Positions 31,096 to 33,892 of a stretch of 35,336 nt of DNA are shown in pieces. Both the position numbers and the translations under genes were made by a program. The notes under the pieces were generated by a model. The model was not told the origin of the DNA and ran no database searches. It saw nothing but the letters and a program-made list of their open reading frames with translations. How positions within the stretch are numbered: the first letter of the stretch is position 1; every line of letters begins with the position of its first letter. Source of the stretch: a virus; the UHGV virus genome UHGV-0373725; one strand, written 5' to 3'.

Positions 31096-33615
31096 ATGTC
31101 GGTACCGAACCAGACACCCTATAACATCTATACCGCCAACGGGCTGACGACTGTCTTTGCCTATGAGTTTTACCTGATCAGCGCCAGCGATATTCAGGTC
31201 ACAATCAACGGCAACGAAGTAACGTCCGGCTATACAGTGTCTGGTGTGGGTAATACTGGCGGTGGCGAAGTTACTTTTCTGACCGCGCCGGCCAATGGCG
31301 CTACAGTCATTTTTGAACGTGTAACGCCGACTTACAGGCTCACTGATTACCAGGACAACGGCGACCTGCTGGCCGATACAGTTAACAAAGATTTTGACCG
31401 TCTCTGGATGGCTATTCAGCGCGCGTTTATTTATCTCGGAGTGGCCCTAAGTCGCCCGCTGTTCGGCGGTGGACCTTTCAACGCTAACGGCTACCGGATA
31501 GCAAATCTGGCCGATCCAGTTAACGATCAGGATGCAGCTACTAAAAAATTTGTAATTGAAAATGGAAAAATTAATCTAGCTCGTACTCTACGCGTTCCGG
31601 AGTCTAGCATCACACCGTTACCTTCCATTGCAGAACGAAAAAATAAAATCGTTGCAATGGATAATAATGGCAATCCATTGATGGTATTGCCTTCGAGTGG
31701 AAGTGCAGCAGATGTAATGATTGAGTATGCCAAACCGACAGGTAGCGGGCATATAGGGGTTCTTACTGGAGGCACCGTTGAAGATGCAATAAAATACGTA
31801 ACCCCTGAAATGATAAGGATTAATGGTGAAAGATATATTCACGGCATCACTGCTGATGCAACTAAATTTCTACAGGCAGCTATAGATTACGGAAAAGCTA
31901 ATAACCTTCCGGTATATTTAACTAAAATGTATCCGTGCATATCTTCACCGATAGAGTTTAATTTGCCATTCGACGATGGGACTGTATACCCAGGGTGGAT
32001 AGGGAACGGTGATTCAAATATTGCTCCTGAAATACCAGTTAAGGCAAAAGCAGCACTGCGTGTTTATGATGATTCAATGATTGTTGGTGAAAACCAACAC
32101 AATTGTGGGATTATTGGTAATTTTTCAAAAACTGCGGGACCATGGGATCATACATCTTCCATGGGTCTATACATCGCAGGTGACAGCGGACCAGATCAAT
32201 ACATAAAGTATCACCTTTCTGATTTCAGGATTAGCGGATTCTTTATTGGGCAATGGGTAGACGGGACTGTAAACCGCTGTGTAGAAAATAATATGATGTA
32301 CTCAGGGTGTGCCATTCCTGCTTGTTATCAAGGATCTGATTCTCTGGCGCAAACTGGGCTGACATTATATTGGTATAATATTACAGGCCCTGTTTTTGGC
32401 GGGCGCTGGCTAACGAGAAATCATGCATACGCGTCTCAGTACCTTCCGCCGTACCCGGCATCAGATATTCATCGGGCGGGATGGAATGATTCGTACCATG
32501 TAGACAAGTTTCATTATTATGGTGATACCGGCATGGACTGGACACATCCAGCATATGCCGCTCTTGACACTTGGTTTGATACGTATGTTTTCAAGTCTGC
32601 AAACTGCTTGCCTACGGCCAGCGGTGGTCGGTTGTCAAATAATCAGCAGAATGGGGTTTACCCAGTTGATACCTATAGAGGTATAGCTGGGCGCGCAAGA
32701 ACTATTATTTCACTTCCGGGAAGGGAGATATTGCATTGCAATATTGGTGAGGCTAAAGTGCTGTGGTCTCCAAGAACGCCATTCTACCACTCTGCTCAAT
32801 TCGTTGACGGATTTAAATCATATGTTGGTAACAGTAAAATAAGGACTCTTATACTGGAAAGGGTAGGAATCATCAAGTATGGCCTTGGTGATGTTGCTGG
32901 AAATAGATTTAATGTTAATAATGTTGATCCCTACGAACCATCTCTTTCAACATTTCCAGCGATGGCAACAAGAGGAAATATTTTCGCCCTTGATATTGTA
33001 AAAGGTGGCGCGGTTCAGGCTGCCCCAGTTAATGAATTTAACGGCACAAGAATCGGTGCCGGTGAGAATATAGTTGCTCAAAGAAAGCTTGGAGATAATT
33101 CAAACTATCGTCTTTTCGGTCTTCAGGAGTTAAACGGAACAAATTTATCCGATAAGTATGTTTTTAATCGAAATGATGCCTATATGCCGCCAATAGCTTT
33201 TCCCGGTGGTAATGCTGCTCAGTTTAAGTATCTTTATGGCACATTCGCACCAACTATTACAATTGGCGGCGCAAGCGTAATACCATCATCCATTATTGGA
33301 ATTTACCGTCGGTTTGGTGATGTTGTTCGTTGCGATATAAGGGTCAGATCAACCTCTTTACTGGTTAGCACTGCGGGCGCCATAGTAATTAGTGGTCTTC
33401 CTTTTACAGCCGCTTCTATACAGGAGGGTGGGTCTAAAGGAAGCATAATTCTTAGTACGGCTACAGGGGTTTTAGTTATGCCGCTTGTTCCTGCTGGGAC
33501 AAATCAAATGACGATTATTAAATCGTCAGCCCAAGAAATATATTCTCAAGCAGCTGGTACTTTTGATTTCACTCTCCAGTGTACTTTTGATTATGTTGTT
33601 CCTTTTAATTCATGA
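31096..33615 (+). CDS. Tailspike / tail fibre with T7 gp17-like N-terminal adaptor domain and a divergent AT-rich C-terminal receptor-binding domain
   Basis: N-terminal ~150 aa align with T7 gp17 (ANGYRIANLADPVNDQDAATKKFV versus T7 ARGRRIVNLANAVDDRDAVPFGQL); GC content drops from about position 31500. Confidence 0.8.
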   Translation: MSVPNQTPYNIYTANGLTTVFAYEFYLISASDIQVTINGNEVTSGYTVSGVGNTGGGEVTFLTAPANGATVIFERVTPTYRLTDYQDNGDLLADTVNKDFDRLWMAIQRAFIYLGVALSRPLFGGGPFNANGYRIANLADPVNDQDAATKKFVIENGKINLARTLRVPESSITPLPSIAERKNKIVAMDNNGNPLMVLPSSGSAADVMIEYAKPTGSGHIGVLTGGTVEDAIKYVTPEMIRINGERYIHGITADATKFLQAAIDYGKANNLPVYLTKMYPCISSPIEFNLPFDDGTVYPGWIGNGDSNIAPEIPVKAKAALRVYDDSMIVGENQHNCGIIGNFSKTAGPWDHTSSMGLYIAGDSGPDQYIKYHLSDFRISGFFIGQWVDGTVNRCVENNMMYSGCAIPACYQGSDSLAQTGLTLYWYNITGPVFGGRWLTRNHAYASQYLPPYPASDIHRAGWNDSYHVDKFHYYGDTGMDWTHPAYAALDTWFDTYVFKSANCLPTASGGRLSNNQQNGVYPVDTYRGIAGRARTIISLPGREILHCNIGEAKVLWSPRTPFYHSAQFVDGFKSYVGNSKIRTLILERVGIIKYGLGDVAGNRFNVNNVDPYEPSLSTFPAMATRGNIFALDIVKGGAVQAAPVNEFNGTRIGAGENIVAQRKLGDNSNYRLFGLQELNGTNLSDKYVFNRNDAYMPPIAFPGGNAAQFKYLYGTFAPTITIGGASVIPSSIIGIYRRFGDVVRCDIRVRSTSLLVSTAGAIVISGLPFTAASIQEGGSKGSIILSTATGVLVMPLVPAGTNQMTIIKSSAQEIYSQAAGTFDFTLQCTFDYVVPFNS

Positions 33616-33622
33616 GGCAAAT

Positions 33623-33892
33623 ATGACTTTCAGAGTGACGCAGACTATAGGGAAATCTATAGCATACCCAACGCTAGGTGTATGGATGCCACCAGAAGAT
33701 ACTTCGATTGAGGTTGAATACCAGGCTGTATCGTTAATATCGCTAAATAATGGAACAGCGACTGTTTCATTTAAAGTTAGCATTGATGGTTGTCTTTCCA
33801 GTGGGGAGCTTACCCATTCTTTTGTCTACTCTGGGTCTGGAAGCCCTCTTGAAGAGGCAGAGGAATCACTTAAAAGCAAACTCGTAATATAG
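33623..33892 (+). CDS. Hypothetical AT-rich small protein (89 aa) downstream of the tailspike
   Basis: ATG with GAGG Shine-Dalgarno; no signal peptide; composition matches the tailspike C-terminal cassette. Confidence 0.45.
   Translation: MTFRVTQTIGKSIAYPTLGVWMPPEDTSIEVEYQAVSLISLNNGTATVSFKVSIDGCLSSGELTHSFVYSGSGSPLEEAEESLKSKLVI

Follow-up and report, generated by a model that had tools for sequence, protein, structure and literature searches.

Probable Exchange of a Two-Gene Cassette, a Depolymerase-Type Tailspike Module and a Linked Small Gene, in a Temperate T7-Like Prophage of Klebsiella pneumoniae

The 35,336-nt window, i.e., the whole stretch of DNA analyzed, is a temperate T7-like (Autographivirus-type) prophage whose host is Klebsiella pneumoniae. 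The best overall explanation of its tailspike locus, which we consider very probable, is a swapped two-gene cassette composed of a depolymerase spike module and orf89, a small, coexpressed, spike-linked gene. A host-range swap of this kind is ordinary; the modest novelty lies in the linked small gene family. The structural module in the window is complete and T7-like (head-tail connector, capsid, nozzle, SLT internal virion protein, and T7-type terminase). Unlike T7, however, the prophage carries an integrase gene and has the local gene order terS, terL, spike, lysis cassette. The exact spike protein is present in the databases as WP_204746338.1 ([quoted passage not shown]) and is carried by 43 contigs. 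A megablast search of the region against 50,697 phage records gave no match, and the informative searches were those at the protein level only.

Two comparator prophages delimit the cassette: L088, a sibling K. pneumoniae prophage that has the same backbone and chromosomal integration site, and L081, an unrelated prophage with another backbone. The features of the locus are as follows.

31096 to 33615, plus strand: tailspike gene (ORF of 839 aa), a mosaic of backbone adaptor and imported receptor-binding module
31096 to 31605, plus strand: backbone part of the spike, consisting of the T7 gp17-type adaptor (aa 1 to ~153) and the first part of the neck (to aa ~170); 80 to 100% nucleotide identity to L088 up to 31605
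31606 to 31636, plus strand: left recombination junction (codons ~171 to 181), inside the neck motif LRVPESSITPLPSIAERKNKIVAMDNNGNP, which all three spikes conserve in part (three-way alignment)
31636 to 33615, plus strand: imported module, predicted to be receptor binding and capsule depolymerizing (aa ~181 to 839); 80% DNA identity to L081
33616 to 33622, plus strand: 7-nt spacer between the spike stop and orf89, sequence tcaTGAGGcaaatATG
33623 to 33892, plus strand: orf89, encoding a small acidic protein (89 aa, 9.5 kDa, pI 4.56) of the spike-linked family phrog_7836
33851 to 33894, plus strand: right recombination junction, at the orf89 3′ end and stop codon; L081 homology stops at 33851 and L088 homology restarts at 33895
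33895 to 34205, plus strand: backbone again, with a spacer and the P21-type holin gene (33975 to 34205; Pfam Phage_holin_2_1, E = 1.8e-30) that starts the lysis cassette

L088 matches the window at 29063 to 31676 (84.5%) and from 33895 to the window end at 35336 (82%), with zero similarity between 31676 and 33895 in this comparison, whereas the stretch shared with L081 is restricted to 31636 to 33851 (80% DNA identity), a contiguous block that runs from the spike C terminus through the spacer into orf89. These complementary boundaries indicate that the cassette consists of spike codons ~181 to 839 plus orf89. They bear out two proposals of the initial annotation, namely, that a host-range cassette had been horizontally exchanged here and that the downstream 89-aa ORF belonged to the swapped unit. 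Both junctions are resolved to ~30 to 45 bp; at the left one, identity to L088 is down to 0.5 at 31606 to 31635 and identity to L081 is up to 0.8 to 0.9 from 31636. We propose that the spike from the neck onward and orf89 would have been gained by recombination as one 2.2-kb cassette, the donor being a pool of Klebsiella phages with lower GC. On the left, the crossover would have taken place in a neck motif partly conserved between otherwise different spikes and, on the right, at the 3′ end of orf89, immediately upstream of the holin region. The replacement cassette of L088 also contains a member of the phrog_7836 family (family HMM, E = 1e-34). Across 15 sibling prophages from other Enterobacterales, the order is kept as terL, a conserved spike N terminus, an unrelated C terminus with variable cargo, and holin.

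Base composition marks out nearly the same interval. Maximum-likelihood two-boundary segmentation of 29500 to 35336 yields a low-GC block at 31517 to 33912 (GC of 0.419 inside versus 0.539 outside; log-likelihood gain, 42). Nowhere else in the window (mean, 0.523; SD, 0.036) does a 2.4-kb stretch have so low a GC. The drop begins 421 bp into the spike gene, in agreement with the sharp fall about 400 bp into the tailspike, persisting through the 89-aa ORF, that had been described from the sequence; the two ORFs also proved to be as described. The recombination junction lies ~510 to 540 bp into the gene, and the initial ~100 bp of low GC is conserved backbone sequence that includes 31546 to 31575 at a GC of 0.13. 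GC returns to 0.50 to 0.57 in the holin region. The suggested check of GC and codon usage showed that composition is not uniform and that third codon positions carry the shift. Spike codons 1 to 140 have a GC3 of 0.58, compared with 0.31 in codons 141 to 839 and 0.34 in orf89; the genes for terS, terL, holin, endolysin, and Rz range from 0.54 to 0.68. GC2 does not change (0.44 to 0.45). As GC3 is shifted and GC2 is unchanged, the low GC reflects codon usage and not amino acid content. The imported module itself has a GC of 0.42 and a GC3 of 0.32.

A low GC that has nothing to do with exchange, resulting instead from the amino acid makeup or functional constraint of a beta-helix spike or from decay of a defective prophage, is hardly credible. 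Several sibling prophages do show lower-GC spike C termini, as would be expected if GC followed domain type. However, constraint does not fit a change confined to GC3 (0.31 versus 0.58, with GC2 at 0.45 versus 0.44), and the limits of homology to two comparators, independent of each other, agree with those of the low-GC block. Furthermore, the cassettes found at the same position in L088 and in another sibling, L007, are near backbone GC (0.50 to 0.53). Decay is contradicted by the intact ORFs and by purifying selection.

The N-terminal part of the spike is a conserved T7-type adaptor, as had been suggested. Residues 9 to 153 match Pfam PF03906 (Phage_T7_tail) above the gathering score (43.7 bits versus a cutoff of 25.2; E = 3e-11), and the predicted model matches, with a Foldseek probability of 1.0, the T7-like fiber N-domains in cryo-EM tail structures of Carin-1, HRP29, Kp7/Kp9, PhiM1, and T7 (7boz), although TMt is 0.34 to 0.53 and pLDDT is low in this part. 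The N terminus is 80 to 90% identical in amino acid sequence to those of dozens of spikes that have other C termini and come from Klebsiella prophages, and it resembles the spikes of epsilon15, phiV10, and YeP (36 to 54% identity over residues 1 to 225/280). The T7 gp17-type N-terminal adaptor is shared with the spikes of YeP4-6 and with those of the Klebsiella T7-like phages Kp7/Kp9. This adaptor would dock the spike on the tail.

The remainder of the protein is predicted to be a capsule depolymerase. Residues ~217 to 839 align end to end with S1-2 of PhiK64-1 (53% identity over 74% of the query; E = 2e-214), an experimentally validated capsule depolymerase that is specific for KN4 (KN4 = KL124) and belongs to DepoCatalog Class 4A. 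Residues ~126 to 834 are 31% identical to the KN1-type spikes (KN1-1 and IME321), also of Class 4A. The module is also 50 to 55% identical at the amino acid level to spikes of Webervirus JY917, Taipeivirus UPM 2146, and Alcyoneusvirus K64-1 (S1-2), and it matches phrog_22560 (E = 2.5e-229). The full-length AF2 spike model is of moderate confidence (pLDDT of 67), with high pLDDT over residues 232 to 440, 463 to 650, and 672 to 839. Foldseek relates the model to the spikes of Det7 (gp208), Phi92 (colanidase), Acinetobacter, K2-2, and HK620 (E = 3e-9 to 1e-3; probability, 0.87 to 1.0), with a TM of only 0.15 to 0.2, and a Pfam search of the spike found no Beta_helix match and no Peptidase_S74 domain. 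The identity to S1-2 and the fold matches to beta-helix tailspikes favor, at the level of homology, the polysaccharide depolymerase domain put forward in the initial annotation. The predicted layout, a beta-helix with a helical insert (residues 485 to 504) and a double C-terminal domain, agrees with that published for Class 4A (short beta-helix, helical insert, two-part C-terminal domain). Conserved acidic residues include D254, D293, D294, E312, D465, D491, and E588, and the pN/pS of 0.10 relative to L081 indicates purifying selection. The imported module would thus be a trimeric beta-helix capsule depolymerase of the S1-2/KN1 type (Class 4A) and, judging from homology, would bind and cleave one capsule type, setting the host range. 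That type need not be KL124, as a K type cannot be assigned from 53% identity to S1-2. The locus differs from that of S1-2 in that its anchor is of the T7 type rather than a jumbo-phage branching domain, its carrier is temperate, and an orf89 family member lies downstream, where S1-2 has none.

orf89 is a real, conserved gene. It matches phrog_7836 (E = 3.5e-20), which has the PHROG function label “unknown,” and the HMM of the family (E = 1e-37), whose members were gathered by exhaustive HMMER search (a word-index search with orf89 gave two proteins only). Family members are ~85 to 95 aa long, are uniformly acidic (pI 4.0 to 5.0), and share the C-terminal motif F-x-YSG-x-G-x-P-x-x-EAE-x-x-L; orf89 has this motif and matches over its full length. 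The AF2 model (pLDDT of 95) is a compact alpha/beta fold, predicted to be soluble, for which a fold search against the PDB gave no match. Calx-beta, DUF5979, and Big_3_5 were rejected as assignments: the phmmer matches are weak, cover the query partially, concern unrelated repeat families, and have no fold-search support. Also rejected was orf89 as a readthrough or fusion part of the spike, as the spike end (...DYVVPFNS) is identical in JY917, which lacks the ORF, and no fused homologs were found. The ribosome binding site (GAGG, followed by 5 nt and ATG) overlaps the spike stop codon, which suggests translational coupling of orf89 to the spike. Through such tight coupling, the gene would be coexpressed with the spike.

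The orf89 family cotransfers with the spike module. Members lie directly 3′ of spike genes in 15 contexts representing at least nine phage lineages, with gaps of 1 to 106 bp (≤13 bp in 12 of the 15 contexts). Virulent phages with a member in this position belong to the Schitoviridae, Vequintavirinae, Ackermannviridae, Alcyoneusvirus, and Drulisvirus, and in Taipeivirus spike clusters, members are located between successive spike genes. A second cotransfer across morphotypes involves podovirus JKT5 and Taipeivirus myoviruses, in which the spike is 83% and the small ORF 73% identical. Family members are absent from the 1.4 kb that follows the S1-2 gene of PhiK64-1 and from the 228 bp that follow the spike gene of JY917, and the post-spike small ORFs of siblings L007, L008, and L010 and RCIP0012 genes 203/209 do not match the family (HMM E > 0.1). 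Behind unrelated spikes, members stay ~50% identical; where the spikes are similar, the small ORF diverges faster than the spike (pN of 0.28 versus 0.06). Since dS is saturated for orf89 pairs, uncorrected pN/pS was used, and the higher orf89 pS is subject to multi-hit bias. Neither aspect of this divergence would be expected of a partner adapted to the receptor-binding domain.

Our most likely reading of orf89, held tentatively and at somewhat less than even confidence, is that it acts in trans as a nonenzymatic partner in spike maturation or virion incorporation and is not strictly needed for enzyme folding. The DepS8 depolymerase, whose gene is followed by a family member, is active when expressed alone. 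One partnered enzyme active alone and two spike homologs lacking the partner indicate, if indirectly, that orf89 is not an obligate chaperone. The earlier suggestion of an “accessory protein or chaperone” would hold at most in part: orf89 is one of a conserved family linked to spikes, yet neither its sequence nor its fold matches a known chaperone, two homologous spikes have no member behind them, and DepS8 is active without its own partner. In position, as a small, coexpressed gene just after a fiber or spike gene, it resembles Tfa (lambda/Mu/P2) and T4 gp38 and gp57A. However, it has no sequence or fold similarity to Tfa, gp38, gp57A, or Peptidase_S74, and in contrast to these fiber and spike chaperones, the family is not fitted to the spike tip and is unneeded for at least one partnered enzyme.

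Several other roles have to be weighed against that of a partner in spike maturation. orf89 may be a host-directed effector that modulates capsule/EPS synthesis or export, or counters surface-linked defense, and that travels with spikes because both are useful on the same capsulated hosts. In our searches every member of the family came from a phage whose hosts are heavily encapsulated Enterobacterales (Klebsiella, Erwinia, Pantoea, and Serratia), and the family's lack of tuning to the spike catalytic domain, its dispensability for DepS8 activity, and its uniform acidity are all consistent with such a role. The same is true of an orf89 pN 2 to 5 times that of the spike module with the fold and one motif kept, a pattern common in host-interaction proteins. 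Nevertheless, we think this role rather unlikely: PADLOC, Pfam, and PDB searches of orf89 gave no match pointing to such an activity, and its very tight, coupled post-spike position in nine lineages, together with the members between successive Taipeivirus spike genes, points to coproduction with the spike.

Somewhat less probable still is a virion structural subunit, such as a cap or decoration, that stays on the mature spike rather than serving as a transient assembly factor. Late, coupled expression at near-spike stoichiometry and the compact, confidently predicted fold would suit a subunit, but recombinant spikes are active without an orf89-type protein, some homologous spikes have no partner gene, and no spike fusion of a family member was ever found. 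The literature search turned up no virion proteomics for any member, and the fHe-Kpn01 proteomics could not be linked to one. An independent moron or lysogenic-conversion gene, comparable to the O-antigen-modifying genes downstream of P22-, Sf6-, and epsilon15-type tailspikes, is very improbable. Although siblings carry variable cargo between spike and holin, with an Acyl_transf_3 gene there in the Trabulsiella sibling, members at the same position in strictly virulent phages contradict this role. orf89 also lacks a signal peptide or membrane segment (sequence and AF2 model), and promoter- and terminator-like sites around the cassette are not above shuffled expectation.

Receptor-binding domain exchange is the main route by which Klebsiella phages change capsule specificity, and it underlies host-range engineering and therapeutic depolymerase efforts. 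The locus provides a cleanly mapped natural swap in a temperate T7-like phage. It shares with known modular spikes a conserved N-terminal chassis and a swappable C-terminal enzymatic module, an arrangement common across morphotypes. It departs from their descriptions in that the exchanged unit is two genes, the module and a conserved small ORF; we found no mention of this ORF or of the accessions of this spike in the literature. In nature, then, a conserved small gene, ignored by annotation and by the literature found, can be part of what is exchanged. If orf89 contributes nothing, the locus is one more modular tailspike. As a possibility that we rate below even, phrog_7836 may be an unrecognized dedicated partner of depolymerase tailspikes, either a new-fold assembly or attachment factor acting in trans or a capsule-directed effector. 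It would then supply the 3′ half of a transferable two-gene cassette for host range in podo-, sipho-, and myoviruses infecting Klebsiella, Erwinia, and Serratia, and spikes swapped or engineered without a family member would give suboptimal phages. Should orf89 help in assembling the spike or in infecting encapsulated hosts, engineered swaps would need to include it, and it would represent a new protein family for spike biology.

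The window holds a nearly complete temperate T7-like prophage, arranged as follows.

185-1201, minus strand, left end: tyrosine integrase
left end, minus strand: Gp157-like gene
plus strand: DnaB helicase and HNH endonuclease
15095-16720, plus strand: portal
18395-19360, plus strand: capsid
19983-21974, plus strand: nozzle
22923-25634, plus strand: large internal virion protein 1, with SLT domain
25634-28537, plus strand: large internal virion protein 2
29130-29471, plus strand: terS
29468-31078, plus strand: terL, T7-type
31096-33615, plus strand: spike, 839 aa
33623-33892, plus strand: orf89, 89 aa
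3' of orf89, plus strand: P21-type holin, lysozyme, and Rz/Rz1

An identical prophage lies on a 246-kb contig (L082), next to DHDPS, yecA-like, tyrP, and ferritin genes, and the exact spike protein (WP_204746338.1, Klebsiella pneumoniae) is present on 43 contigs. Integrated T7-like temperate relatives with terL 45 to 72% identical are common in Pseudomonas, Acinetobacter, Burkholderia, Comamonadaceae, and other Proteobacteria (loci L021 to L080), some genomes carrying two copies (Acinetobacter corruptisaponis and Symbiopectobacterium sp. RP). The HNH endonuclease gene (11150-11767; HNH_3, E 1e-9), within a lower-GC (0.45) part of the replication region, may be a mobile homing-type insertion.

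Maximum-likelihood segmentation of 29500-35336 delimits a low-GC block at 31517-33912 (GC, 0.419 inside versus 0.539 outside; log-likelihood gain, 42), which is the most AT-rich block of its size in the window (mean, 0.523; SD, 0.036). GC3 is 0.58 in spike codons 1 to 140, 0.31 in codons 141 to 839, and 0.34 in orf89, with values of 0.54 to 0.68 in terS, terL, holin, endolysin, and Rz. Unlike GC3, GC2 is constant at 0.44 to 0.45, indicating a codon usage signature rather than an effect of protein composition. By both segmentation and GC3, then, the sharp fall within the spike gene that the initial annotation followed through orf89 is real and large. The cassette (spike codons ~181 to 839 plus orf89; GC, 0.42; GC3, 0.32) resembles the homologous spike of Taipeivirus UPM 2146 (0.41 and 0.31), and its GC falls between those of homologous spikes from Webervirus JY917 (0.48) and jumbo phage K64-1 (0.32). 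Such a composition would fit residence in the virulent-phage gene pool.

The boundaries of the cassette emerge from two independent comparators. L088, a K. pneumoniae sibling with the same backbone and chromosomal site, matches 29063-31676 at 84.5% and 33895-35336 at 82%, with zero similarity between 31676 and 33895, where its spike has another C terminus and is followed by small ORFs peculiar to L088. L081, a prophage of different backbone (lysis genes holin_8, holin_3_7, GH19 endolysin, and DUF2514), has only 31636-33851 in common with the window, as a single unbroken block of 80% identity comprising spike codons ~181 to 839, the spacer, and nearly all of orf89; its spike residues 1 to 160 are just 30 to 47% identical. 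Scanned in steps of 30 bp, identity to L088 stays at 0.8 to 1.0 through 31605 and then collapses, and identity to L081 rises abruptly to 0.8 to 0.9 at 31636, which places the left crossover at codons ~171 to 181, ~510 to 540 bp into the gene. On the right, the crossover maps to 33851-33894, at the extreme end of orf89. These complementary boundaries support the exchanged cassette originally proposed. The initial position of about 400 bp holds as the compositional edge but not as the junction: the low-GC block begins with ~100 bp of backbone sequence, among them 31546-31575 at GC 0.13. The left crossover falls within a neck motif, LRVPESSITPLPSIAERKNKIVAMDNNGNP, which is partly conserved across all three spikes and could be the source of homology for exchange.

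L088 also has two more small ORFs after its orf89 relative (7816-8288; 62 and 90 aa), of which the latter is Cys/His-rich and zinc-binding-protein-like; a Pfam search matched neither. Elsewhere in the window, a second low-GC island (28542-28976, minus strand; flanks, 28500-29100; GC, 0.34 to 0.42) codes for a 144-aa minus-strand ORF of phrog_8772 (unknown function), between an internal virion protein gene and terS, for which Pfam and PADLOC searches gave no match. L088 lacks DNA similarity here and has a 108-aa plus-strand ORF instead; this is another swappable cargo (moron) site. A third low-GC stretch (24500-26000; 0.42 to 0.47) falls within the ejectosome genes, where it encodes the C-terminal portion of the 903-aa SLT protein and the beginning of the 967-aa protein. 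Across 26003-28531, L088 is only 71% similar, versus 82 to 85% elsewhere, which suggests mosaicism in internal virion proteins too.

The T7-type adaptor expected at the spike N terminus is confirmed by a Pfam Phage_T7_tail match above the curated threshold (residues 9 to 153); the modeled N terminus, low-confidence in that part, matches fiber N-domains in cryo-EM structures of T7-like tails. Residues ~217 to 839 are 53% identical to S1-2 of PhiK64-1 (UniRef name, “Depolymerase, capsule KN4-specific”). KN4 is KL124 in DepoCatalog, whose Class 4A holds S1-2 and the KN1 enzymes and is characterized by a short beta-helix, inserted helices, and a double C-terminal domain (PMC13385381); the KN1 enzymes are 31% identical to the window spike. 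The structure predicted by AF2, with pLDDT averaging 67 and high at 232 to 440, 463 to 650, and 672 to 839, has the Class 4A layout. Among solved beta-helix tailspikes, it matches Det7 gp208 (E 3e-9), Phi92 colanidase, and the Acinetobacter, K2-2, HK620, and Kp7 spikes, with low whole-chain TM-scores. Between the window and L081, the spike module has an amino acid identity of 0.90 and a pN/pS of 0.10, indicating strong purifying selection. From similarity and predicted fold, we conclude that the suggested depolymerase domain is present and that the spike would work as a capsule depolymerase of the S1-2 class. As a protein, it adds a new member to a depolymerase class that is already known, and the swapping of C-terminal modules on an N-terminal chassis is a familiar mechanism.

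Wider comparisons add support for the swap. In 15 of 15 sibling prophages with terL 77 to 88% identical (Raoultella, Enterobacter, Pluralibacter, Trabulsiella, Pectobacterium, Serratia, Symbiopectobacterium, Sodalis, and others), a conserved spike N terminus (residues 1 to ~220; 49 to 75% identity) is followed by an unrelated C terminus, variable cargo, and a conserved holin, and GC is usually low from the spike C terminus to the holin. In a large protein database, the N-terminal ~210 to 250 residues recur, 80 to 90% identical, in dozens of “tail fiber” proteins from Klebsiella prophages that differ in C termini and Pfam content, and the C-terminal module is found again at 50 to 77% identity on contigs of 41 to 158 kb, in phages of four morphological types. 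The spike-to-holin locus of the Trabulsiella guamensis sibling (L012, 12010-13020) contains a 336-aa Acyl_transf_3 gene (GC, 0.35; E 6e-21), the kind of surface-polysaccharide O-acetyltransferase used in lysogenic conversion; the locus thus houses host-range and conversion cargo. The 839-aa spike and an 864-aa spike from an L081-type prophage (other backbone, same cassette type, 77% amino acid identity) both list a 5,345,150-bp K. pneumoniae chromosome as longest contig and have neighboring accession series (HID5294748 and HID5294941) in another assembly, so the two prophages, sharing one type of receptor-binding cassette, probably occur together in some strains.

The second cassette gene, orf89, has a GAGG ribosome-binding site that overlaps the spike stop codon, and it starts 7 nt past that stop. 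It is a real gene: it matches phrog_7836 (“unknown function”; E 3.5e-20), and when 1.84 billion representatives were searched exhaustively with HMMER, 79 relatives emerged, nearly all stand-alone proteins of 85 to 95 aa that align end to end (consensus, MSFT..YP.LG...VTY...F.V..G...F.FxYSGxGNPLxEAExxLKxxL). The AF2 model built from the family alignment (pLDDT, 95; pTM, 0.76) predicts four antiparallel strands and then a C-terminal helix. With a pI of 4.56, the protein is acidic, like the entire family (pI 4.05 to 5.03). In BFVD, the fold occurs only in uncharacterized proteins of 85 to 126 aa from phages of Klebsiella, Erwinia, and Serratia, and none is fused to a larger protein; the literature searched yields no description of such a gene.

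In all contexts inspected (n = 15), a family member lies directly 3' of a spike or depolymerase gene, with gaps of 1 to 106 bp (≤13 bp in 12). These are the K. pneumoniae prophages (the window, L081, and L088), Drulisvirus JKT5 and K66PH128C1, Webervirus K64PH164C4, Pavtokvirus Pavtok (gp17, behind EPS depolymerase gp16), Johnsonvirus Rexella (gp93, behind EPS depolymerase gp94), Alcyoneusvirus KP13-7, Mydovirus Seu621, and the Taipeivirus-type phages RCIP0012 (two members), Zahir, K5lambda5, and UPM 2146. Spike module and member have moved together across backbones in two cases, one being the window and L081 and the other podovirus JKT5 and Taipeivirus myoviruses (identity of 83% between spike modules and 73% between small ORFs). 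In Klebsiella phage RCIP0012 (L005, 453-11503), each of four consecutive spike genes is followed by an ORF of 84 to 91 aa; ORFs 205 and 207 are phrog_7836 members, and ORFs 203 and 209, with similarity to the family undetectable by sequence, may be analogous post-spike partners from another family.

Although orf89 is spike linked and cotransferred, the accessory or chaperone role first envisaged would be a tentative reading, and indirect evidence indicates that orf89 is not an obligate folding chaperone. The JY917 and PhiK64-1 homologs of the window spike lack a downstream member, and DepS8 of KpS8, whose gene sits 5' of one, is active when expressed alone in Escherichia coli (PMC8381472). Members also stay ~50% identical behind spikes with unrelated catalytic domains, and the small ORF outpaces similar spikes in divergence (pN, 0.28 versus 0.06, 0.20 versus 0.10, and 0.48 versus 0.34), so orf89 is not matched to any one catalytic domain. 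Our best guess, held tentatively, is that orf89 would be coexpressed with the spike as a nonenzymatic helper of its maturation or incorporation into the virion. A host- or capsule-directed effector and, slightly behind it, a virion-bound subunit are less probable alternatives. Because virulent phages commonly carry the family, a moron for lysogenic conversion is unlikely.

Overall, the early observation is confirmed and its interpretation supported, and the locus, which holds no major surprise, is worth modest follow-up. It departs from the usual pattern in one respect only: two genes make up the natural exchange unit, and the second belongs to a conserved, structurally unmatched, and uncharacterized family tightly linked to spikes in at least nine phage lineages.
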